From positions 96,001-160,000 of the forward strand of contig CAVSOU010000014.1 of the NCBI GenBank assembly GCA_963729625.1: a stretch of DNA of 64,000 nt, given 5' to 3'. Under the pieces are notes generated by a model. The model had not been told where the DNA came from. It was given only the letters and a program-made list of their open reading frames with translations, and did no database searches. The DNA is from an uncultured bacterium (GTDB taxonomy: Bacteria; Chloroflexota; UBA5177; JANWHV01). This document shows, piece after piece, positions 42,976 to 62,275 of the stretch (its first letter is position 1; the number at the start of each line of letters is the position of its first letter). The translations under genes and the position numbers were made by a program.

Positions 42976-44706
42976 ATGCATCCCAGCGCAGAACCGCAAG
43001 TCATGGTACCGCCTCGGAGGCGGTTTCGGCTGTTTCCGCAGGCGGGCCTGCGGCTGGAGGCCGGCGCCGACGATGCTGTCCAGGGAGCTGCGGTCGCTTC
43101 GCGAACGTTTCCCTCCGCTCAAGTTTTCTTCTTTGCCTTGACCTGCGTGGTCGTGTTCGGTGTTGTCGCGGTCGTGTACTTTGCCAGCCTGACGAACAAT
43201 CTGAGCGTCGAAGGCGACAACGCGATTTATATGATTCTGGCCAAAGCCATGAACGCGGGCCACGGTTACACCAATATACAAGGACCAACGCCGCGCATCG
43301 AAGCGCAATACCCGCCGCTTTTCCCGATCATGCTGGTGCCCATCGTTCGCGTGTTTGGCGTCGGCGGCGTGCTGCAGATGCAAGCATTGGTAACGTGCTT
43401 CGCGCTGGCGTCGTTCGCAGTGGGATTGGTCCTCTTCAAGCGATGGACGGAGAGCGCGCTCCTTTCCCTTGCGATCATGCTCGCGACCGCTGAGTCCGAC
43501 CTCGTGTGGTCGTTTTCACACAAGGTCCTGACAGAGATTCCCTATCTCTTCGTCACGCTATTGACCTGCCTGCTGCTAACGCTGTACGGGCATGAAACAC
43601 GTTGGCGCACGTGGACGGGACTATCGGTCGTCCTTGCCGCCGGCGCAGTGTTTCTGACGAGGACGGTCGGGGTGAGCATGTGCGTTGCCGTGCCGGCATA
43701 TCTGGTGCTGGCGCCGCCACTTCGTCACCGTCACGACTGGGACCTGCGCATTCGGAAGGCGATCGCGACGACTGTCGGGATCGCCGTCCTGGCCGGAGCC
43801 TGGACGCTGAGAAACAGGGCTGTCTACTCCGGTCAGGGACACAACTACATCGGCCAGTTCTTGCTTAAGGAGGCCTACGTACCCGACAACGGCAAAGTGA
43901 CGTCCAACGAGCTTGTTACCCGCATGGCTGACAACGCGGCCTACTACGCCGACCAGTTTCAACGCACGCTGCTGGGCCACGAATGGGACAGGATGACTAC
44001 GGCTCCCCTTGTGTCGCACGTGCTGCTTGCGTGCGCGATCGTTGGCTTCGCCGTTGCACTGTGGCGACAGCGCACCGTGGCCGAGTTCTACGTGGCCGGC
44101 TACAGCCTGATTGTCCTTCTTTGGCCGTGGCAGGATCTCCGCTTCGCGGTCCCCATCATGCCGTTTATCTTCTACTACATGGCCATGGCCCTACACGCAG
44201 CAGTGTTCTTCGCGTCTCGCCTGCGCCACCTCGACCCAAGGGTTGTAGCCGCACTCGTGCTCATCCCGCTTACCATTCCTACCGGAGCGCATACGGTGCA
44301 CATCGCGCGAGACGACCGTGCGGCAGGCTACCACTATCAGAGCGACAAGTTGGGAGAATGGGTAGCGTACCCGGACTGGCAAGACTTCCACGCCGCAGCC
44401 ATGTGGCTGAAGGTTCACGCTATTCCCGGCAGCACCGTGATCAATCGTAGCCCGAATATCTTCTACCTATGGACCGGTTTGGCGTCGAGGAATTATCCGT
44501 ACACGTTCAATGAGTGGAGCGTCATGCAGGACGTTAGCGCGGAACATGTCGACTACATGCTGCTTGACGATTTCAGCTGGACCTACACGACAAACGTCTA
44601 CATGAGGCCGGTCGTTAAGCGCTATCCCGATCGCTTCGTGCTTTTGCACCGATTCCGCGGCGCGGCAGTCTATGCCGTCGTCCATAGCACGCCTGCCGGA
44701 AGCTAA
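42976..44706 (+). CDS. Membrane glycosyltransferase (ArnT/PMT GT-C-like)
   Basis: EGDNAIY..LAK.M..G.GY, YPPLFP, VLTEIPYL, LTRTVG, W..RN, RF.VP..PF. Multiple TM helices. Confidence 0.75.
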   Translation: MHPSAEPQVMVPPRRRFRLFPQAGLRLEAGADDAVQGAAVASRTFPSAQVFFFALTCVVVFGVVAVVYFASLTNNLSVEGDNAIYMILAKAMNAGHGYTNIQGPTPRIEAQYPPLFPIMLVPIVRVFGVGGVLQMQALVTCFALASFAVGLVLFKRWTESALLSLAIMLATAESDLVWSFSHKVLTEIPYLFVTLLTCLLLTLYGHETRWRTWTGLSVVLAAGAVFLTRTVGVSMCVAVPAYLVLAPPLRHRHDWDLRIRKAIATTVGIAVLAGAWTLRNRAVYSGQGHNYIGQFLLKEAYVPDNGKVTSNELVTRMADNAAYYADQFQRTLLGHEWDRMTTAPLVSHVLLACAIVGFAVALWRQRTVAEFYVAGYSLIVLLWPWQDLRFAVPIMPFIFYYMAMALHAAVFFASRLRHLDPRVVAALVLIPLTIPTGAHTVHIARDDRAAGYHYQSDKLGEWVAYPDWQDFHAAAMWLKVHAIPGSTVINRSPNIFYLWTGLASRNYPYTFNEWSVMQDVSAEHVDYMLLDDFSWTYTTNVYMRPVVKRYPDRFVLLHRFRGAAVYAVVHSTPAGS

Positions 44707-52816: not shown

Positions 52817-54526
52817 GTGACTCCGCAGTTTCAGGCTGGGATGGCACCACGACCGGCCGGCACGGATAGTGTCCTGCTGGACGTGGCGGGCCCTCCCGAT
52901 GATCGTCCACGCGGCGGTCTCGCGCCGCGCCAACCAGTCGTTCAGTCGCCGCGTCAGGACATGCTCTGGGCGGCTGTTGCGGCGGCCCTCATCTTGCTGG
53001 GCCTTGCCGTGCGCGTGGTCCTGCTCCAGAGATATTACGTTGTACCGGATGCCGACCAGTCTGTTCTTGGCCTTATGGCTCGGCACATTCTGCAGGGAGA
53101 AAGGCCGGTGTTCTACTGGGGCCAGAGCTATACCGGGAGTGGCGAGGCATATCTGACCGCCGCGCTCTTCCGCTTGCTCGGGCAATCCAACCTTCTTCTA
53201 CACGTTGTTCCGCTGGCCGCGTCGACCCTGTTCACCGCGTTGACGGCAGCACTCGCGTGGCGGCTCTACGGCCCCGGCATAGCCGGGCTTACCTGTGCCT
53301 TCCTTGGTGTCGGGCCGATGCTGCTCGTGGGTTGGAGCCTTTGGGCGGGGTCGGGGTACCTGGAATCGATGGCGGCCGGCGTCGCTGCGCTATTGCTTGT
53401 CCTGCAACCAGCGGGTAAGCGTCTGGGCGCCGGAAGCCTTGTGAGTGCGTTCTTCCTTCTGGGCCTAGCCGTCTGGATTCAGCCTACAGGTGTGTATTAC
53501 CTCGTCTCCGTCGCCGCGGCCCTGACGGGACGCATCGCACGCGCGACACACGAATCAGAGACCTGGGCAGCACGGATTGCGATTGGCGTCTTCGTGGGAT
53601 TGGCATTCTGTGCCGGAGCGTCTCCACTCATCGTCTATAACCTGCAGCACGAGTGGGCGACGTTCGCGTTCTTATCGAGCCACTCCACGGACGTGGCGGC
53701 GTTGACTGTGGTCGCGCGAACCGTCTTGTGGGCCGGTCCGGTGCTTACGGGATTGTTGCCACCGACTACCGACCGATCGTATTTCTTGCACTTCATCCTC
53801 GACCATCTGCCACTCTACGGCGTGTCCCTTGCCATCGTTCTCCTCCTCCTATTCCGCGTCCTCAGCCTGTGGCGGCTCGCGCTACGCCGTGTCCGCGTCG
53901 CGGCGCCGGGAGACTTGGCTCTGGTCGCGCTGACCATTGCCGTACTTGGTGGGTACCTTGGCACCGGTTGGGGCGGGGAGCAGTGGTCGGGATCTCAACC
54001 CAGATACCTGCTGCCGCTCTATTCTGCCGTGCCACTGATCATCCGGCTTTGTATGCCACTTACGCGGAAACCGTGGCATTGGGCGGTCGCGTGGATTGCC
54101 GTGGTCGGGATTGCGGGCGCCGGAATCGCGGTGAACACGACGAGCTTTGCGCGAAGCGACGTTGCTCCCCTCGGCGTGATGCTCGAAGATAACAGAATAC
54201 GCGCAGTATATGGCGATTACTGGCTCGTCTACCCGCTTACGCTTTCCAGCTCGGAACAAGTGGTCGGCGTCGCCGTGAACGACAACCTCAGCAAGGGCCT
54301 GTTGAGCAACCGATACAGCCCGTACCTGCGTGCCGCGGCCAGCACAACCGACTTTGCCTGGATCGCGAGCCGCGCCAGCGCACGTGAAGCTAGCATTCTC
54401 CGATGCCTCACGCGTCTGCGAAGTCGCTACACGGTGCTACGGTGGCGGGACCAGGTGATCTACGTCCGCCCAACCGGCCGCGCGTTTCCCTGGTGGAATG
54501 GAGGCCGCTGCTCAACGACCTCTTAG
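52817..54526 (+). CDS. Membrane glycosyltransferase (GT-C-like)
   Basis: DADQSVLGLMARHILQG.RPVFYWGQSY.G..EAYL, RYLLPLY, YGDYW..YPL. Multiple TM helices. Start uncertain. Confidence 0.75.
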   Translation: MTPQFQAGMAPRPAGTDSVLLDVAGPPDDRPRGGLAPRQPVVQSPRQDMLWAAVAAALILLGLAVRVVLLQRYYVVPDADQSVLGLMARHILQGERPVFYWGQSYTGSGEAYLTAALFRLLGQSNLLLHVVPLAASTLFTALTAALAWRLYGPGIAGLTCAFLGVGPMLLVGWSLWAGSGYLESMAAGVAALLLVLQPAGKRLGAGSLVSAFFLLGLAVWIQPTGVYYLVSVAAALTGRIARATHESETWAARIAIGVFVGLAFCAGASPLIVYNLQHEWATFAFLSSHSTDVAALTVVARTVLWAGPVLTGLLPPTTDRSYFLHFILDHLPLYGVSLAIVLLLLFRVLSLWRLALRRVRVAAPGDLALVALTIAVLGGYLGTGWGGEQWSGSQPRYLLPLYSAVPLIIRLCMPLTRKPWHWAVAWIAVVGIAGAGIAVNTTSFARSDVAPLGVMLEDNRIRAVYGDYWLVYPLTLSSSEQVVGVAVNDNLSKGLLSNRYSPYLRAAASTTDFAWIASRASAREASILRCLTRLRSRYTVLRWRDQVIYVRPTGRAFPWWNGGRCSTTS

Positions 54527-54730
54527 GGCGGACCAAACTTGCGGGGCGAAATCGAAGTGCCGACCACTTGTCGTCGACCGCGACCCGACTGACCGGTCTC
54601 CAATCGGTCGGTTCCAATGCCTGCCAGCAAGCCTCGCGGCTCAGGTCGGACGACCCAGGAGCCTTTACCAAGCAGAGCAATACTGCTGTAAGTGGCCAAG
54701 AGCGATCACCAGTGCGACAGCTGACTTCCA

Positions 54731-54776
54731 AACTTCTGTTCACTATGTGACAATCTCAACCGATTCAGTGCATACT
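54731..54776 (+). promoter_or_regulatory. Putative promoter/operator for the amino-sugar operon
   Basis: GTGACA (54747-54752), 18 nt, CATACT (54771-54776). The AT-rich imperfect palindrome TGTTCACTATGTGACA overlaps the -35 box. Confidence 0.35.
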
Positions 54777-54914
54777 AGGAAGCGGCTGGGACCGGTGCGG
54801 ACCTGTGCTCGGTTTGACGGCTCTGGGTGAGTTGGTGCGTGATGCCCGATTCTTCGCGCGACGCACGGCTGCACTCACTTGCTACATGGCGCTGATCGGA
54901 GAAGGTGGCTGGGC

Positions 54915-55922
54915 TTGGAACGTGCGCGACTCTTTCTTGGTGCTGACGGCGGCTCTTCCGGCACCCGCGTTCTCATAGTCGATTGGTCAGGGAAGGCGCT
55001 GGGTCTTGGCTTCGGCGGCAAGGCAAATCATGCATCGATCGGCTATGCAACGGCCGTGGCCAACGTGATGAGCGCCACGGGACAGGCGCTGAGTGCGGCT
55101 GGGATTGCCCTTCGCGATATCGAGCGCGCGCATTTCGCGCTTGCCGGTGATGACGTACAGGACGACGATGCAGGATTGACCTCGCATCTTGTCCAAGCCC
55201 TGCACGGCGTCCCTTTTGAACTCTCCAATGACGTCTGGGCGGGGCTTCGAGCGGGCTCGATCGACGGCACGGGTATCGCCGTCAATTGCGGCAGCGGAGC
55301 CGGCGGCGTAGGCAGAAACGCAGCTGGCACGCGCGCAATGATCCCGGATCTCGGCTACGTATTCGGAGACTCGGGGGGTGGAGAGCAGATCGCGAACGAC
55401 GCTGTTCGTGCCGTGATCCGCGCTTGGGATGGCCGAGGACGTCCCACTGCGCTGACCGAGGCTGTACTGGAGCAGACGGAGCAGCCATCGACCGAGGCCC
55501 TGTACCTCGCCCTCTATCGGGGTGTGGTCGACCGGCCGTTAATCCGGAAGTGTACTCGTCTCGTGTTCAAAATGGCGGCGAAAGGCGACGCCGTTGCAAT
55601 CGAGATCTTGCGACGAATTGGCGACGAGTTCGGCGTGACGGCTTCGGCTATCGCAAGAAAGCTGGGCATGGAGCATCAATCGTTTGACTTCGTCCTGGCT
55701 GGTGGCGCCATACGTACCCTGAGATCGCCGTTGATTGATGCCGCGGCAGGACGGCTGGGTTCGGTTGCTCCAGGTTGCAGGCCAACGCTGCCGAAACTTA
55801 TGCCGGTGGGAGGCGCTGCCCTGCTCGCGCTCGAACGCGCCGGAGTCAGTGTCACCGCTAGCCATTTCGACTATCTCGCGAGCCAGGGCCACGGCTGGCA
55901 TCCTGAGGAAACGTTCAACTAG
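54915..55922 (+). CDS. BadF/BadG/BcrA/BcrD family sugar kinase (GlcNAc-kinase-like)
   Basis: FLGADGGSSGT, LAG.D..DD, NDV.AGLRAG, NCGSG, GD.GGG, A..GD.VA, LAGG. Confidence 0.88.
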   Translation: MERARLFLGADGGSSGTRVLIVDWSGKALGLGFGGKANHASIGYATAVANVMSATGQALSAAGIALRDIERAHFALAGDDVQDDDAGLTSHLVQALHGVPFELSNDVWAGLRAGSIDGTGIAVNCGSGAGGVGRNAAGTRAMIPDLGYVFGDSGGGEQIANDAVRAVIRAWDGRGRPTALTEAVLEQTEQPSTEALYLALYRGVVDRPLIRKCTRLVFKMAAKGDAVAIEILRRIGDEFGVTASAIARKLGMEHQSFDFVLAGGAIRTLRSPLIDAAAGRLGSVAPGCRPTLPKLMPVGGAALLALERAGVSVTASHFDYLASQGHGWHPEETFN

Positions 55923-55944
55923 CACAAACGCGGGGGTGGCACAG

Positions 55945-57237
55945 ATGAAGATTTGCGTCATAGGAGCCGGCAGTACGTACACGCCCGAGTTGGTCGAGGG
56001 ACTGCTGTTGCGGCGAGGCGTCATTCCCACGACCGAGCTCGCGCTCATGGATATCGATGACACGAAGCTCAAGATCGTGGGAGGACTGGCAACCCGCATG
56101 CTCGAGCGGGAAGGTAACCCGTTCAAGGTTACCCTCACCACCGACCGGCTCACGGCTATTCGAGGGGCAAGCTTCGTACTGACGCAGATTCGGGTCGGCT
56201 GCCTGCAGGCACGCGAGAAAGATGAGCTGATTCCTCGCGGCTTGGGCTATGTGGGTCAGGAAACGACTGGAGCCGGCGGCTTCTTCAAGGCGCTTCGCAC
56301 TATTCCCGTGATCCTCTCAATCGCTCGCGAGATGGAGGAACATGCCCCGGGGGCATTCCTGATTAACTTCACGAATCCGGCTGGGATCGTCACCGAGGCT
56401 GTGCTCGCGCATACCAATGTGCCGGTCATAGGACTGTGCAACGGCCCCTTCGGTACAGTCAAACGCATCTCGGAAGTGCTCGGCGTTCCGGAGAGCGAGC
56501 TCAGCATGCGGTACTTTGGGCTGAATCACCTGAGCTTCGCCGCCGACATCTGTCACCTTGGAACGAGCGTCCAGGCTGCGGTCGTGGAGGCCTTCGCCAC
56601 CGGTGCGGACGACGCCGACGCGGCCATTCTGCGCGGTCTCGGCCTCATTCCCTCGGCGTACTTGCAGTATTTCTACCAGAAGCCAGAGAAGGTCGCGGAG
56701 CAGCAGGCAGAAAGCAAGAGTCGGGCTCAGCAGGTTATGGACATCGAGCGACAACTGCTAACTCTGTACCAGGATCCGGGTTTGGCGGAGAAGCCCAAGG
56801 TGTTGGAGCTGCGCGGCGGCGCGTGGTACAGCACCGTTGCCACAAAGCTCATTGAGTCGGTCGTTTCGAATCGAGGCGACGTGCACATCGTGAACACGCG
56901 CAATTGCGGCGCCATCGCCGACCTACCGTTTGACTGCGCGGTGGAAGTTGCAGCCTCGGTCGATCGGCGCGGGCCTACGGCGCTGGTTCAGGGAGCGTTG
57001 CCGCTCAAGGTGCGAGGGTTAGTCCAGCAAGTCAAGGCGTATGAACAGTTGGCCGTTCAAGCCGCCGTCACTGGCGACCGCGAGACGGCAATCTGGGCGC
57101 TCACCAATAATCCGCTAGTGGGTTCATATACAGCCGCGACGCTCCTGGTGGATGCACTACTGCAGGCGCATCGAGAATACCTGCCGGCCTTCTTTAGCCA
57201 TGCCCAAAGTGCCGACATGGAGCCACCGTGGAAGTAA
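55945..57237 (+). CDS. Family 4 glycoside hydrolase (6-phospho-beta-glucosidase-like)
   Basis: KICVIGAGSTYTPEL, QIRVG..AR..DE.IP, GQETTGAGG, INFTNP, IGLCN, GLNHL, RGGAWYS. Confidence 0.93.
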   Translation: MKICVIGAGSTYTPELVEGLLLRRGVIPTTELALMDIDDTKLKIVGGLATRMLEREGNPFKVTLTTDRLTAIRGASFVLTQIRVGCLQAREKDELIPRGLGYVGQETTGAGGFFKALRTIPVILSIAREMEEHAPGAFLINFTNPAGIVTEAVLAHTNVPVIGLCNGPFGTVKRISEVLGVPESELSMRYFGLNHLSFAADICHLGTSVQAAVVEAFATGADDADAAILRGLGLIPSAYLQYFYQKPEKVAEQQAESKSRAQQVMDIERQLLTLYQDPGLAEKPKVLELRGGAWYSTVATKLIESVVSNRGDVHIVNTRNCGAIADLPFDCAVEVAASVDRRGPTALVQGALPLKVRGLVQQVKAYEQLAVQAAVTGDRETAIWALTNNPLVGSYTAATLLVDALLQAHREYLPAFFSHAQSADMEPPWK

Positions 57238-58037
57238 TCATCATTCCCGACAGATTCAAGGCCGCACTTCTGACTGCCCGCATCATCGCGAAGGAGCTTG
57301 CAGCGAATCCACAGCTCGTGCTTGGCCTTGCCACGGGACGCACCATGGAAAGGGTATACCAAAACCTGGTTGACATCCATCGGCTCGAGGGCTTGAATTT
57401 CTCGCAGTGCCGTACGTTCAATCTCGACGAATACGTTGGGATTCCGGCAGAGCACAGTGGCTCGTATCGCCACTACATGAACGAACACCTTTTCAGCAGG
57501 GTGAACATTGATCTTGCGAACACTCATCTTCCGAACGGAATGGCAGCGGACCTCAAAGAGGAATGCCGTCACTACGAGGCGCTGATGGCAGAGGCAGGCG
57601 GTATAGACCTGCAGCTTCTGGGGATGGGACGCGATGGCCACATCGGATTCAACGAGCCACTGTCTGCCCTCCGGTCGCGCACGAGGGAGAAGGCGCTCAC
57701 ACCGATCACATTGCGACAGAACGCTGCGATGTTCGGGGGACAGGTCAACGTGCCTCGCCGAGCCATCACGATGGGCGTCGGCACCATTTTGGATTCTCGA
57801 CGCTGCATCCTCCTTGTGACTGGCGATTCCAAGGCAGGGATAGTGGCCAAGGCGCTGGAAGGTCCGATTTCTTCGATGGTTTCCGCATCGGCGCTGCAGT
57901 TGCATCCCAATTGCCAGATTGTGGTCGACGAGGAAGCAGCGTTGGAGCTGCAGGGTCGCGACTACTACCACTGGGTCTTTGCCAACGAGCCGGAGTGGGT
58001 TGAATTCCAGAACCTGGAAGCTCTTGAGCCACACTAA
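57228..58037 (+). CDS. nagB: Glucosamine-6-phosphate deaminase
   Basis: VLGLATG.T, TFNLDEYVG, GGIDLQLLG.G.DGHIGFNEP, AITMGVGTI, SALQLH. Confidence 0.93.
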   Translation: MEVIIIPDRFKAALLTARIIAKELAANPQLVLGLATGRTMERVYQNLVDIHRLEGLNFSQCRTFNLDEYVGIPAEHSGSYRHYMNEHLFSRVNIDLANTHLPNGMAADLKEECRHYEALMAEAGGIDLQLLGMGRDGHIGFNEPLSALRSRTREKALTPITLRQNAAMFGGQVNVPRRAITMGVGTILDSRRCILLVTGDSKAGIVAKALEGPISSMVSASALQLHPNCQIVVDEEAALELQGRDYYHWVFANEPEWVEFQNLEALEPH

Positions 58038-58107
58038 GCCCCTACGCGCCGTTAGCTTCACGTAGTTCCAGATTGCACCGGGCAGAACGCTTTGAGGAGG
58101 ACAGCAG

Positions 58108-59223
58108 GTGAAGATTCCTTTCTACGGACACACGCGCCAGTATCACAACATCAAGGGCGAGATCGACGCGAATCTCGCCAAAGTGCTGGAAAGCGGCCAA
58201 TATGTCATGGGCCCGATGCTCAAACAATTCGAAGGTGAGTTCGCCGCTTACACCGGCAAGAAATACGCGATAGGCGTCGGCAACGGCACTGATGCCCTCT
58301 GGCTGACGATGACGGCTCTAGGTGTGTCGCCGGGTGACGAGGTGATCACAAACGCGAACACCTTCTTCGCTACCGCGGAGGCGATCTGGATTGCTGGCGC
58401 GACGGTGGTGCTGGTCGACTGCGACGACGGCACGCGCTGTATTGACCCGGCTAGAGTGGCCGCCGCGATCACCCCAAGGACCAAGGGCATCATTCCCGTT
58501 CACCTGTATGGCCAGTGCGCGCCGATGCGAGCGATCAAGGAGATCGCCGATAAGCACGGACTCTGGATCATCGAGGATAACGCCCAGGCGATCGATGCTC
58601 GCGGTGACGACTTCACTATCGGCGAACTGTCGGCCGCTGTGTGCACGAGCTTCATCATTCAGAAGAACCTGGGCACGTTCGGGGACGGCGGGGCGATTTA
58701 TACGGATGATGCCGTGATTGACCAGAAGGTGCGCATCCTGCGCAACCACGGATCCGCTCAGCGCGATCACCACAGTCCCGGGTTCAACAGCCGGCTTGAC
58801 GACCTGCACGCGGGTATCCTGAGTGCGAAACTCAAGCATATTCGCGAGTGGACCGACGTGCGTCGCGCCTGGGCCGCGCGCTATGACGCAGGTTTGAAGG
58901 ATGTCGTCTTCTTGGATCTTCCATACGAGCGGCCGGGCTATCGGCACGCGTATCACCTGTATGAAATCGAGACCAAGAATCCCTCAGACCGCGACCCGCT
59001 GCTCGCGTACCTCAATGCCAAAGGCGTTGACGCCAAGACTCACTATTCGATTGCCATTCATAGGCAGGAGGGCTATCCGTGGGGAAAGGATTCTGCGATC
59101 CGTGGCTCTCTGCTAAACGCCGAGAAGAACGCGGCGTCGTGCATCTCGCTGCCGATGTATCCCGAATTGACGTCCGACGAAGTCGACTACGTGGTTTCAA
59201 CAGTCAGGTCATGGAATTCTTGA
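58108..59223 (+). CDS. DegT/DnrJ/EryC1/StrS PLP-dependent sugar aminotransferase
   Basis: GNGTDAL, NTFFATAEAI, PVHLYGQ, IEDNAQA, SFIIQKNLG.FGDGG (catalytic Lys), GFNSRLD, SLPMYP. Confidence 0.93.
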   Translation: MKIPFYGHTRQYHNIKGEIDANLAKVLESGQYVMGPMLKQFEGEFAAYTGKKYAIGVGNGTDALWLTMTALGVSPGDEVITNANTFFATAEAIWIAGATVVLVDCDDGTRCIDPARVAAAITPRTKGIIPVHLYGQCAPMRAIKEIADKHGLWIIEDNAQAIDARGDDFTIGELSAAVCTSFIIQKNLGTFGDGGAIYTDDAVIDQKVRILRNHGSAQRDHHSPGFNSRLDDLHAGILSAKLKHIREWTDVRRAWAARYDAGLKDVVFLDLPYERPGYRHAYHLYEIETKNPSDRDPLLAYLNAKGVDAKTHYSIAIHRQEGYPWGKDSAIRGSLLNAEKNAASCISLPMYPELTSDEVDYVVSTVRSWNS

Positions 59224-59251
59224 TGCTGTGCGTTCAGGCCCGGAGCGAGGA

Positions 59252-60316
59252 ATGAGCAAGTACAGGGTCCTCGTGGTAGGCATGGGGAAGCGCGGAAAGC
59301 ACCATGCTACCCATTTCCACGCCAATCCGCGTTTCGAGGTGGTTGGGATTTGCGACATTGACCCGACCAAGCTGCACGATATCGCCGCGAGCCTGGGCGA
59401 TCCCGAAACCGGCTCCGATGCTGCCGAGATGGCGGCAGCGCTCGAGCCGGACGTCTTCTGTTTCTGCACGCTGCCGAGCATCCGATCCGAGATGGTCCAG
59501 GTCGGCGTCGAGTGCGGTGCAAAGCTCATCGCGTTCGAGAAGCCGGTGGCCCTCACGTCTCGGGAAGGACAGAGGGTGAAGGCCATGCTCGCAAAGAGCC
59601 CCGCTAAGGTCGTGGTGAGCCATCAGCACCGCTACGGAAAGCACTATCAGGCGGTGAAGGACACAATCGCGAGCGGCAGGATCGGCAAAGTGCAAACAGT
59701 CTACGGCATTTCCCAGGGATGGGCGGCGCACATGCTGTCGCACCTTATCGACTACTCGATGTGGTACAACGACTATTCCAAGCCAGAGTGGGTACTGGCC
59801 CAAGCTGCCGGCACGCACAAGTTCTCCGACGTCCACGCCTCACCTGACTACATCGCCGGCTTCGTGCAATTCGCTAACGGTGTCCGGGGCGTCTATGAGT
59901 GCGGAGGAGGCGCGCCGGATGTGGCTGAGGTGCAGCGGTGGTGGGGTAAGTGCAAGATTGGCGCGACCGGTACAGAGGGTTACGCGGAAGTCTATACGGG
60001 AAACGGCTGGAAGGCCGTCACCAAGGACGGGCTCTTGCGTGGCGACGGTGCCATGGCATATGACCTGGACATGCCCGGCTACATTCAGGACATGGCCGCG
60101 TGGCTCGACGAGGGCATCGTGCACCCTTGTTGCTTCGAGCACGCCTATGCCGGCTTCGACGTCATGATGGCCATGTTCAGAAGTGCTGCGCGGGGTGGTC
60201 AGATACTCCTACCGCTTGCGAATCCAGCCGATGAGCTGGAGGAGCTGAAGCACGCTCTGCCTGACTCTCCGGTGCTGGTCACGCTCGAAGAGTCCCGGAA
60301 AGAATTCGACGTCTAG
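59252..60316 (+). CDS. Gfo/Idh/MocA family oxidoreductase
   Basis: VLVVGMGKRG..H Rossmann start, EKPVA, HQHRY, SHLID. RBS GAGG. Confidence 0.88.
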   Translation: MSKYRVLVVGMGKRGKHHATHFHANPRFEVVGICDIDPTKLHDIAASLGDPETGSDAAEMAAALEPDVFCFCTLPSIRSEMVQVGVECGAKLIAFEKPVALTSREGQRVKAMLAKSPAKVVVSHQHRYGKHYQAVKDTIASGRIGKVQTVYGISQGWAAHMLSHLIDYSMWYNDYSKPEWVLAQAAGTHKFSDVHASPDYIAGFVQFANGVRGVYECGGGAPDVAEVQRWWGKCKIGATGTEGYAEVYTGNGWKAVTKDGLLRGDGAMAYDLDMPGYIQDMAAWLDEGIVHPCCFEHAYAGFDVMMAMFRSAARGGQILLPLANPADELEELKHALPDSPVLVTLEESRKEFDV

Positions 60317-60421: not shown

Positions 60422-62275
60422 CTACACTGCGGCAGTTGCCAGTATCTCGGCCATGGGAGGGCGCTCTGAGTCCTCGATGCGCCGTACTTCTAGATGGAAT
60501 TGATCGCGCGTATGGACGATCGATTTCATTGACCGGTTGAGCTCCGAAATGAGCTCTATCCGATGCTGGCGCTCGACCCGGCCGATGACCGTTTGCAAGA
60601 TCGTAAAGGACATTCGGCTGAGCGCGGACAGCGGTTGGTTGCGATGCACGCGCTGCTCGAGATCGACTTGTGCGATGGAGTTCAGGCCGAAGCGGTCCAC
60701 GACGTCGATCAGCAGGCCGATTTCGACGCCATAACCAGTGGCAAACGGCAGCTGCAGCAGCAATTCTCTGCGGCCCGCGTACTCGCCTGAGAGCGGCTGA
60801 ATCACGCCAGACAAGAGAGGATAGAACATGTTGATTAGCGGCCGGGCCGTCAGCTCCGTCACCCGGCCGCCGGTTGACTCTTGAAGGATATCGCCCTGCC
60901 GCAGCGGGCGCCTGTAGAAGCCCTTGACATAGCCAATCCTCGGCTCCCGCAATAGGGGGCCCAGCAAGCCGTATACGAACTTGGGATGGATGTTGGCGAT
61001 GTCTGTGTCGATCCACGCGATGATGTTGCCCTTGGCCAGGCTGAGGCTCTTCCAGAGGGCCTCGCCTTTGCCCGTGTGTGCGCCGCACTGTGGAAGTACA
61101 TCCTGGTGCACGTAGACCGGCACGCCGAGGGAGCGCGCAATCGACACGGTGCGGTCCTCGGATCTGCTGTCGATCACCAGCAGGTCGTCGATGAGCGGCT
61201 GCCTGCGCTGAAGGTTCTCCTGCATGCACGCAATAATCGCGCCGATTGTTTGCTCTTCGTTGAGGGTGGGAAGAACCAGGCTAATCGTAAGGCCCTGTTG
61301 TTCCTTCAACCTGACCAGGTCGGACAGCGATGCGAATTCCTTGCTATGGAACGTGTTCTCGGCAAACCACTTGTCGACAACTGGCGAGACGCCCTCAGCC
61401 ACACCGGCCTGTTGCGCTCCGTCCCCAGCCGCAGTGGTGGTCCCATATTCGCCTATGGAGATCTGGCGTTCGGTCTTGGTAATGAAGACTGGGCACTCAA
61501 CGCCCCGAGCCACCTCCTCCGCCAGGTGGCCGTAGGGATAAGGGAACGACCGGCTGGTCGCCGCCGCGCCCATCACGATCAGGTCGTGGCGCGCGGCCTC
61601 CTCGATCAGGCAGTCCACGAGATGCGGAGCGACGACGGACCGCGCGAGAGCGATTCCGGGATATAGCCCCTCCCAGTATTCGCGGAAGGCCCTGTCTTCA
61701 GCCTGAGCCTCGGCATCTGGGACGTAGGACGGGATTACCCGCAGGATGGTAACTGTTGCGTCCCACGCCTTTGCCAGGCTGATGCCGAGCTCGGCCGCGA
61801 GGTTCGCGTGCGTCCCGCCACGCAGTGGCAGGAGGACTCGCCGTGGTCGAATTCGCGGGTCAAAGGGCTTTACCGACAGCATGTCGCACGGAGGCTGCTG
61901 TGTCAGCCGCCACATCGCCGTGTCCGCGATATTCCCAAATCGTGGCGAAGGCGCCCAACCGACGACGAGCAGGCTCGCGTCAGTCTCGAACACGACGTCC
62001 ACCAGTGCCTCGTCGATTGAATGTCCTGCTCGGACAATTGGCTCTGCCGGCAGGCCTTCCTCGCCGGCGATCCGAGTGGCCCTGCGCAGCAGTCGCCGTT
62101 GCGCACGCGCCTCTTTTGCGCCGTGGCTCAGAGACTGCCCTGGAGCCACCACAACGACGCTCACAACCACCAAGCGCGCGGATCTCGCGCGCGCCAGCTC
62201 TACCCCAATCCGTACCAAATGCTCGGCTGTACGGGGGTTCGCGAGGCCCACCAGCACGGTCCTTGCGTCAGTCAC
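60422..62275 (-). CDS. gpgS: Two universal-stress-protein domains fused to glucosyl-3-phosphoglycerate synthase
   Basis: N-terminal USP units (VLVGLANP, LLVVGW, PPCD; VLLPLRGG.HA, LIVMGA) and C-terminal GT-A (PTLNEE.T, DS.S.D.T, GKGEALWKSL, DTD, GGRVTELTARP, QPLSGEYAGRR, GYGVE, HRNQ). Confidence 0.9.
   Translation of the reverse strand: MTDARTVLVGLANPRTAEHLVRIGVELARARSARLVVVSVVVVAPGQSLSHGAKEARAQRRLLRRATRIAGEEGLPAEPIVRAGHSIDEALVDVVFETDASLLVVGWAPSPRFGNIADTAMWRLTQQPPCDMLSVKPFDPRIRPRRVLLPLRGGTHANLAAELGISLAKAWDATVTILRVIPSYVPDAEAQAEDRAFREYWEGLYPGIALARSVVAPHLVDCLIEEAARHDLIVMGAAATSRSFPYPYGHLAEEVARGVECPVFITKTERQISIGEYGTTTAAGDGAQQAGVAEGVSPVVDKWFAENTFHSKEFASLSDLVRLKEQQGLTISLVLPTLNEEQTIGAIIACMQENLQRRQPLIDDLLVIDSRSEDRTVSIARSLGVPVYVHQDVLPQCGAHTGKGEALWKSLSLAKGNIIAWIDTDIANIHPKFVYGLLGPLLREPRIGYVKGFYRRPLRQGDILQESTGGRVTELTARPLINMFYPLLSGVIQPLSGEYAGRRELLLQLPFATGYGVEIGLLIDVVDRFGLNSIAQVDLEQRVHRNQPLSALSRMSFTILQTVIGRVERQHRIELISELNRSMKSIVHTRDQFHLEVRRIEDSERPPMAEILATAAV

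Follow-up and report, generated by a model that had tools for sequence, protein, structure and literature searches.

Pairs made up of a DegT-family aminotransferase and a Gfo/Idh/MocA oxidoreductase (Gfo below) all build 3-amino sugars in the papers cited here. GnnA/GnnB, which convert UDP-GlcNAc to UDP-GlcNAc3N for lipid A, and WbpB/WbpE combine a Gfo C3 dehydrogenase with a DegT C3 aminotransferase, and PMC5644692 and PMC10622841 describe how they swap 3-OH and 3-NH2 on a 2-acetamido glucose. NtdA/NtdC and KabA/KabC of Bacillus kanosamine synthesis likewise join DegT and Gfo at C3, the forward chemistry of NtdA/NtdC being given in PMC8788734 and PMC6522883. Finally, GenD2/GenS2, KanD2/KanS2 and RifL/RifK/RifN use a dehydrogenase and a pyridoxal phosphate (PLP)-dependent aminotransferase to install a C3 amine, with RifN as kanosamine kinase (PMC5461906 and PMC8788734). 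Here we analyse a DegT-Gfo pair with a different genomic context, located in a 64,000-nucleotide stretch of DNA (the window; G000:C14:96001-160000, with G000 the window's own genome) from an uncultured Chloroflexota bacterium. The pair ends a cluster of five intact, co-oriented plus-strand genes encoding a BadF-family kinase, a GH4 enzyme, NagB, DegT and Gfo, and the evidence points to two joined modules that would meet at glucosamine-6-phosphate (GlcN-6-P) rather than to one pathway. We tentatively propose that DegT and Gfo remove the C3 amine from 2,3-diaminoglucose-6-P in a catabolic reaction giving GlcN-6-P, i.e. the GnnAB/NtdAC chemistry in reverse; that the pair has a catabolic use of some kind is probable. 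The features of the cluster are:

54730..54783, + strand, putative promoter (-35 box GTGACA at 54747-54752, -10 box CATACT at 54771-54776, spacer 18)
54915..55922, + strand, BadF/BadG-family sugar kinase (PF01869, E 8e-22)
55945..57237, + strand, GH4 of the 6-phospho-beta-glycosidase type (PF02056 and PF11975; Cys motif CNGP)
57228..58037, + strand, NagB glucosamine-6-phosphate deaminase (TIGR00502, 264.9 bits, cut-off 236.9)
58108..59223, + strand, DegT/DnrJ/EryC1/StrS aminotransferase of the S[FY]IIQK subfamily, C3-type (PF01041, 363.8 bits; catalytic Lys186)
59252..60316, + strand, Gfo/Idh/MocA oxidoreductase of an uncharacterised subfamily, constant partner of DegT (PF01408)

Open reading frame (ORF) calls and profile searches confirm the tight, co-oriented arrangement reported by a first-pass annotation of this DNA, with intergenic gaps of 22, -10 (an overlap), 70 and 28 nt, and a single transcript is likely. 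Among the sequencing runs listed as holders none was RNA, and two DNA runs yielded only short pieces. As that annotation also stated, the cluster holds no nucleotidyltransferase, nagA or transporter, and nagA is nowhere over cut-off in G000 (87% complete) or in the congener G001 (95% complete). G001 retains all five genes at 72–85% identity with other upstream neighbours, and these two genomes are the only ones in which the full combination was found.

A GTDB scan with the window DegT gave 407 candidate stretches, of which 321 were confirmed with a loose threshold; the best 80 loci (62–77% identical) were used further. DegT and Gfo occur side by side in many uncultured bacteria of sediment and soil, and the loci carry the labels Verrucomicrobiota, Lentisphaerota, Kiritimatiellota, Acidobacteriota, Chloroflexota, Bacillota, Omnitrophota and others; two loci labelled Bifidobacteriaceae (L043, L046) nest among Verrucomicrobiota sequences, have Verrucomicrobiota-like neighbours and are probably mis-binned contigs. 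A Gfo orthologue accompanies DegT in 77 of the 80 loci, always downstream and on the same strand, and at no more than 400 nt in 72. A deaminase is present in 45 loci (NagB in 40, an SIS protein in five), with 31 of 36 close NagBs lying within 500 nt of the pair. Further genes include an unnamed protein of 460–490 residues and a PIG-L deacetylase (22 loci each), a NahK-like kinase (10), a nucleotidyltransferase (4), GalE (4) and NagA (3). The first-pass annotation had read the five genes as one pathway, to be refuted if DegT and Gfo were not linked to nagB/GH4 in other genomes. The linkage to Gfo and to nagB recurs, but one conserved pathway of five genes is not supported, with a single GH4 (30% identical) and no BadF kinase in the 80 loci, and with a kinase-GH4 unit that lacks DegT in 10 of 54 loci of GH4 relatives.

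Where loci hold all five of the recurring genes, the order ROK-like kinase (the unnamed protein), deacetylase, DegT, Gfo, NagB on one strand is found in 12 of 16, and this matches the order of the proposed reactions. Entry would be provided by the ROK-like kinase and the PIG-L deacetylase, whose genes border the pair in many genomes but are located away from it in G000. DegT would then shift the C3 amine of GlcN3N-6-P (2,3-diamino-2,3-dideoxy-D-glucose-6-phosphate, maybe N2-acetylated) to 2-oxoglutarate, Gfo would use NAD(P)H to reduce the resulting 3-keto sugar, giving GlcN(Ac)-6-P, and NagB, or an SIS deaminase in other lineages, would produce fructose-6-P and ammonia. Reduction of the 3-keto sugar together with deamination would pull flux. 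We infer the direction of the reaction, a sugar phosphate rather than a nucleotide sugar as substrate, and the identity of the sugar; 2,3-diaminoglucose-6-P is suggested because a C3 aminotransferase and a reductase that sit between genes for a deacetylase and a deaminase of GlcN-6-P would, on the simplest view, convert a 3-amino derivative of GlcN-6-P into GlcN-6-P itself. Likely sources would be GlcN3N lipid A and the diacetamido-sugar glycans of dead cells. According to PMC5644692, the beta-1,6 lipid A backbone of several rhizobia is formed by GlcN3N, which GnnA and GnnB produce from UDP-GlcNAc; diacetamido uronic acids occur in O-antigens (PMC10622841) but cannot be 6-phosphorylated. The proposal might, if we read the loci correctly, describe the first catabolic route for 2,3-diamino-2,3-dideoxyglucose, spread over about ten phyla of necromass-degrading bacteria. 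Muramic-acid or epimerase routes were set aside by reasoning only, as these would need no aminotransferase-reductase pair.

The surroundings of the pair support the catabolic amino-sugar context that the first-pass annotation had assigned to it. We scanned 100 of 107 non-core nearest-neighbour proteins, one per family, with seven long proteins dropped, and found regulators, sugar transporters, glycosidases and housekeeping genes; sugar regulators (LacI, ROK, AraC, GntR) and sugar transporters recur around the pair. The 100 neighbours also include three epimerases and one each of a nucleotidyltransferase, a phosphomutase, a polysaccharide-synthesis protein and a YfhO match. Neither inositol genes nor aminoglycoside-related genes recur among these neighbours, and the antibiotic-derived substrate suggested earlier receives no support. 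An anthranilate-synthase gene downstream in L001, with the same family in three other loci, raised the possibility of an aminoshikimate (RifKLN) link, which was dropped as there is no wide recurrence.

The same scan bears on a biosynthetic role like that of GnnA/GnnB or WbpB/WbpE, in which Gfo would oxidise C3 of UDP-GlcNAc or GlcN(Ac)-6-P and DegT would aminate it; the resulting 3-amino sugar would go into lipid A, a glycan or a small metabolite. Such a role appears rather unlikely to us. The 100 nearest neighbours contain neither a glycosyltransferase nor a HAD phosphatase, whereas a Gfo-DegT pair of biosynthetic type, carried by a Rhizobium plasmid, is surrounded by acyltransferase, glycosyltransferase and O-antigen translocase genes. 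In addition, lpxA over cut-off is absent from 10 of 53 carriers, including G000 and G001, so that lipid A synthesis cannot be the role of the pair in these ten, with the proviso that the genomes are incomplete; the pair is moreover patchy and apparently dispensable (see below). Speaking for biosynthesis are the 43 carriers that do have lpxA, the polysaccharide gene bordering locus L006, the nucleotide-sugar C3 aminotransferases that are the closest structures to DegT, the presence of WlbA among the tied Gfo folds, and the distant Gfo relatives fused to GT2 domains.

What kind of aminotransferase is DegT? The protein (371 aa) is a member of the DegT/DnrJ/EryC1/StrS family, fold type I, and carries the catalytic Lys rather than the dehydratase His. 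The unusual Lys loop pointed out by the first-pass annotation, SFIIQKNLG, is confirmed at residues 181-189, and among the 80 loci it reads SFIIQKNLG in 64, SYIIQKNLG in 15 and SFITQKNLG in one. The canonical SF[YF]PxK loop of C3 nucleotide-sugar aminotransferases (WbpE/QdtB/GnnB) was found in none of them, with S[FY]IIQK in 79 and SFITQK in one. In a quick tree, 69 of these enzymes form one clade against eight canonical enzymes (Shimodaira–Hasegawa-like approximate likelihood ratio test (SH-aLRT) support 100), and K186, D157 and Q160 are invariant in 69 sequences. The 15-residue Lys motif SFIIQKNLGTFGDGG, matched by eye, retains KNLG..GDGG as in DesV and QdtB and the C3-type Gly at position 9. 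By profile, DegT ranks with QdtB (360 bits), DesV (342) and WbpE (324; 41% identical to DegT), above NtdA (268) and ArnB (226), and AHBA synthase and BtrR/RbmB score 150–173 bits compared with 300–378 for the C3 group. The top 15 structure chains matching the DegT profile are C3-type or unassigned. A DegT structure model (predicted local distance difference test (pLDDT) 93) gives the same ranking: DesV, QdtB and WlaRG match with Z 47–49 (DesV: Z 49.0, root-mean-square deviation (rmsd) 1.9, 361 aligned) and NtdA/KabA with Z of about 44 (NtdA: Z 44.1, rmsd 2.2, 357 aligned). By motif and ranking DegT is therefore a C3-type sugar aminotransferase, in agreement with the C3 chemistry proposed initially, and it is closer to nucleotide-sugar C3 enzymes than to NtdA.

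The clade nevertheless has residues of its own. An invariant His-Tyr (312-313) is kept, but Ile-Ile replaces the Tyr-Pro of the canonical loop, Tyr6, Gly7, His8, Trp65, Lys310 and a Pro-Trp insertion are clade-specific, and about 45 positions in all differ from the canonical enzymes. Gln185 is nearly invariant; in the ten canonical enzymes used for comparison its place is taken by Gly, Thr, Ser or Ala. If the catalytic residue of NtdA is Lys247, as we assume, Gln185 would align with NtdA Tyr246, which hints at a non-nucleotide substrate. In NtdA, Leu70 and Tyr246 fill the nucleotide pocket, according to bioRxiv 10.1101/2021.09.04.459008. Contrary to the first-pass annotation, NtdA is not the only DegT enzyme acting on non-nucleotide substrates: bioRxiv 2021.09.04.459008 and PMC5461906 add KdnA and RbmB, and GenS2 with GenD2, respectively.

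The changed residues could also signify other chemistry: the substrate might be an aminocyclitol or an amino sugar with its amine at C2 or C4, or the reaction might be a PLP-dependent epimerisation that supplies the amino-sugar pool. The Ile-Ile replacement and the many differing positions suggest a remodelled pocket, and inositol dehydrogenases are among the Gfo matches; the absence of recurring inositol genes, the far lower scores of BtrR/RbmB-type enzymes and the retained C3-type motif leave us giving this option little credence. Gfo itself contributes less to the question. Its subfamily, to which 2828 of the 8000 scored candidates belong at E<=1e-30, has an invariant EKP and conserved GW..H(M)LSH..D motifs, and its model (pLDDT 96) is at most 23% identical to solved structures among the matches listed. 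Four fold matches are tied: levoglucosan dehydrogenase (Z 31.8, rmsd 2.7, 310 aligned), DgpA (31.8, 2.5, 301), scyllo-inositol dehydrogenase (31.6, 2.5, 306) and WlbA (31.4, 3.0, 308). No NtdC or KabC is named among the PDB matches listed. Some distant Gfo relatives (P0203, P0227, P0239, P0249, P0251, P0256, P0269, P0262, P0238) are fusion proteins that also contain a GT2, 3-keto-disaccharide hydrolase or DegT domain.

The deaminase is the commonest neighbour of the pair. The window NagB keeps the catalytic Asp, His and Glu and the NLDEY and GHIGFNEP motifs, and it is the only NagB-I found in G000, the other homologues in that genome being 23–31% identical. Its identity to Verrucomicrobiota enzymes reaches 70%, compared with at most 52% to the NagB of relatives other than G001, and since it is closer to the Verrucomicrobiota enzymes than to those of its relatives, nagB-degT-gfo would appear to have arrived together in the window's lineage. 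The carriers of 50 of the 80 loci were searched: NagB of the window type is the sole NagB in 34, three have a more distant NagB and 13 have no NagB-I match. The SIS proteins are a second type: the four of the five that were scanned score highest against the GlmS isomerase domain and NagB-II, albeit below cut-off, and three SIS genes lie directly behind Gfo on the same strand. Because of these best matches, two unrelated deaminases are predicted to have been recruited beside the DegT-Gfo pair. The Verrucomicrobiota-type NagB (the window, L118-L137) lacks the lid Arg of the E. coli enzyme, which we take to be Arg172, and often has an Arg in its phosphate loop (GLATGRT) that may possibly compensate. 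We rejected the notion that these changes mark a special NagB variant with a changed substrate: the same type occurs in about 49 of 151 Verrucomicrobiota genomes (a hand count at >=52% identity), nearly all without DegT, and it is the single NagB of most carriers. A uronate isomerase adjoining NagB was likewise discarded as pair-specific, since it also occurs without the pair.

The association with deaminases is important for deciding between 2,3-diaminoglucose and kanosamine (or its N-acetyl form), for which NtdAC in reverse would take kanosamine-6-P via 3-oxo-glucose-6-P to glucose-6-P and NagB would be adjacent only through a shared kinase, deacetylase and regulator. The C3 chemistry would be the same, NtdA/NtdC act on sugar-6-phosphates (PMC8788734), many loci have no deaminase and NagB is a housekeeping enzyme. 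However, the deaminase is found in 45 of 80 loci, twice as often as the kinase or the deacetylase (22 each), and in two unrelated forms; in the window NagB is kept while the ROK kinase and PIG-L are missing; and NtdA and KabA rank below other C3 enzymes. Kanosamine as the substrate is for these reasons unlikely in our view.

The pair is also patchy: of 151 Verrucomicrobiota genomes two carry it, the search centre being one of these, and it is present in 3 of 61 genomes around the window's own. Plasmids gave no orthologue of DegT or Gfo (best 46% for DegT, 26% for Gfo). In 20 NagB regions taken from genomes without the pair, kinase-deacetylase-NagB or deacetylase-NagB is contiguous in five (L120-L123, L127), and in one (L118:4852-5082, G171) a 76-aa ORF lies between the PIG-L deacetylase and NagB, with 43 residues of the start of DegT (63.9 bits) in frame with a weak match to the end of Gfo (5.3 bits). 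This ORF is an apparent scar of a pair deleted as a unit, although no more than one such case was seen and faulty assembly could explain it. The DegT-Gfo pair is thus apparently a dispensable add-on. The ROK-like protein (460–490 aa; also L063:5649-7127 and L195-L207) has no Pfam or NCBIfam match; the ESM Atlas groups it with ROK sugar kinases (score 0.98), and 19–80% of the Atlas members grouped with it carry the ROK annotation. It is usually paired with a PIG-L deacetylase, near NagB or SIS, and together they probably make up an N-acetylhexosamine kinase/deacetylase module, so far undescribed, that takes the place of nagK/nagA. The protein is present in 92 of 151 Verrucomicrobiota genomes, and hence common without the pair, and in 46 of 53 carriers versus 2 of 58 non-carrier relatives of G000; in G000 the ROK-like and PIG-L genes are on another contig (C10:725428-727682).

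Nucleotide-level salvage would offer another entry, with a NahK-like kinase and a nucleotidyltransferase making UDP-GlcNAc3N, and DegT and Gfo running GnnBA backwards to UDP-GlcNAc. The 10, 4 and 4 loci with NahK-like kinase, nucleotidyltransferase and GalE would fit such a scheme, which is nevertheless very unlikely: the block formed by these genes and NagB also occurs without the pair (L131, L132, L135, L137), and G000 has no match to the NahK-like or transferase queries. In Lentisphaeria-like loci (the four just named, L039 and L042) this block of nucleotidyltransferase, NahK-like kinase, GalE and nagB is recurrent, with or without the pair, and looks like a Leloir-type GalNAc salvage route.

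Several observations weigh against removal of the C3 amine from 2,3-diaminoglucose-6-P. No deaminase is nearby in 35 of the 80 loci, 30 have no amino-sugar gene at all (many are short), and among the 40 loci of at least 15 kb only 22 hold a deaminase. The 13 carriers without a NagB-I match (an SIS gene is seen in some) belong here too, and the NagB beside the pair is the usual sole copy in these genomes, so that its adjacency may reflect shared regulation rather than flux. The nearest characterised aminotransferases use nucleotide sugars, the Gfo tie at Z of about 31 does not discriminate among dehydrogenase types, some loci contain the NahK-like kinase, nucleotidyltransferase or GalE, and most carriers have lpxA. 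Finally, the scar is a single, possibly artefactual case, and the carriers are kin, so that counts of loci and genomes overstate independence.

The kinase and GH4 are a separate, lineage-local module. The best PDB match of the kinase (72% identical in G001) is the MurNAc/GlcNAc kinase 8zo3, and GH4 is of the 6-phospho-beta-glucosidase type, matching 5c3m/1s6y with 397–399 bits compared with at most 165 for other groups; its Cys motif is CNGP, versus CNVP in these structures. None of 54 metagenome loci of GH4 relatives carries an S[FY]IIQK DegT. In ten of them, several probably from the same few organisms, a kinase orthologue (57–59%) is directly upstream of GH4, and eight of the ten have an ordinary NagB. 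Two other congeners hold GH4 (71–72%) without DegT; G003 has GH4 alone. The BadF kinase and GH4 would phosphorylate and split a beta-linked, probably glucosamine-containing disaccharide, making use of the same NagB. GH4 catalysis oxidises the C3 hydroxyl of the phosphorylated glycone. Since a free C3-OH is needed, a 3-amino sugar cannot be the GH4 glycone; it would have to be the leaving sugar or undergo conversion beforehand. A GH4 specialised for 3-amino sugars was rejected, as CNGP is also present in orthologues without DegT.

These data are also relevant to the first-pass annotation's reading, taken here for this genus: the five enzymes would work one after another on a single amino-disaccharide such as the GlcN/GlcN3N lipid A backbone, with DegT and Gfo possibly converting the 3'-amine before GH4 cleavage. 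The conserved promoter region, the tight spacing and the retention of all five genes in G001 would favour it. Set against this are the restriction of the combination to two genomes, a GH4 motif identical to that of DegT-less orthologues, the eight other loci in which kinase-GH4 goes with ordinary NagB, and the solitary GH4 of G003, and we regard action in series as quite improbable.

Other GH4 loci were noted along the way. In relatives of the window's organism (L142-L150), as many as three GH4 genes are clustered with two BadF kinase genes, an ordinary nagB and genes for a DeoR-like regulator and for a transporter of the MFS or ABC type. G000 has a second GH4 (35% identical) with a ROK kinase (G000:C10:1229825-1234284), divergent from a GntR regulator and a canonical SFYPGK DegT (42%) and close to an ABC sugar transporter and glycosidase-like genes. 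L176:5174-12320, with a degenerate NagB-like gene, GH4, DegT and Gfo, was rejected as a second case of the cluster, its DegT being BtrR/RbmB-like and 2.7 kb from GH4.

Upstream of the cluster, the sigma-70-like site is the sole consensus match in the region, a count no higher than chance (1 versus 1.7 in shuffles), and an imperfect inverted repeat that overlaps or lies upstream of the promoter boxes is a candidate operator. The promoter/operator put forward by the first-pass annotation therefore receives no support from frequency; conservation speaks for it, since both boxes and the inverted repeat are kept in G001 while the flanking DNA has diverged. The longest kinase ORF begins at 54879; TTG 54915 is probably the start, because an upstream AGAAGG is conserved and G001 has GTG at the same place. 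GH4 probably starts at ATG 55945. The gene upstream encodes a 569-aa membrane protein, and in G001 three genes separate its counterpart from the cluster. Membrane proteins of about 570 aa without a Pfam match are encoded at 52817-54526 (+) and 42976-44706 (+), the latter weakly matching the LA_3751 putative glycosyltransferase family. On the other side, a gene for a glucosyl-3-phosphoglycerate synthase fused to universal-stress-protein (Usp) domains (60422-62275, -) faces the cluster convergently, and this gene is syntenic in G001.

If the proposal is true, an amine-removing pair would supply a missing recycling step for envelope diamino sugars, and two subfamilies now labelled only by Pfam name, the Gfo one with 2828 proteins among the candidates scored, would be re-annotated. 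The work also points to a common Verrucomicrobiota kinase-deacetylase pair without a curated family. Should the substrate be kanosamine or a UDP-sugar, the pair would fall within known chemistry. A literature search, mostly of titles and abstract openings and with few subscription journals, found no description of the DegT-Gfo pair and nothing on the catabolism of 2,3-diaminoglucose or kanosamine. Compared with the systems outlined at the start, GnnAB and Wbp are biosynthetic, nucleotide-linked and tied to lipopolysaccharide (LPS)/O-antigen genes, whereas the pair described here has catabolic neighbours and some hosts without lpxA, a different Lys loop, and a Gfo only about 20% identical to WlbA. 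With respect to NtdA/KabA, DegT is 34–36% identical and shorter (371 versus about 440 residues), aligning from NtdA residue 65 without the N-terminal extension; a sugar-6-phosphate is proposed here as well, but the proposed direction is opposite, the partner is a deaminase, and there is no NtdB/KabB HAD phosphatase in the window or among the 100 neighbours. The Gen, Kan and Rif systems belong to antibiotic biosynthesis clusters, and no antibiotic genes recur around the DegT-Gfo pair. NagK-NagA-NagB catabolism and LicH/ChbF-type GH4 systems share the kinase, deacetylase and deaminase logic; they have no aminotransferase/reductase step, and the window operon for its part has no nagA or transporter. 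Relative to all of these systems, the chemistry is already known, and it is the enzymes and their proposed role that are new.

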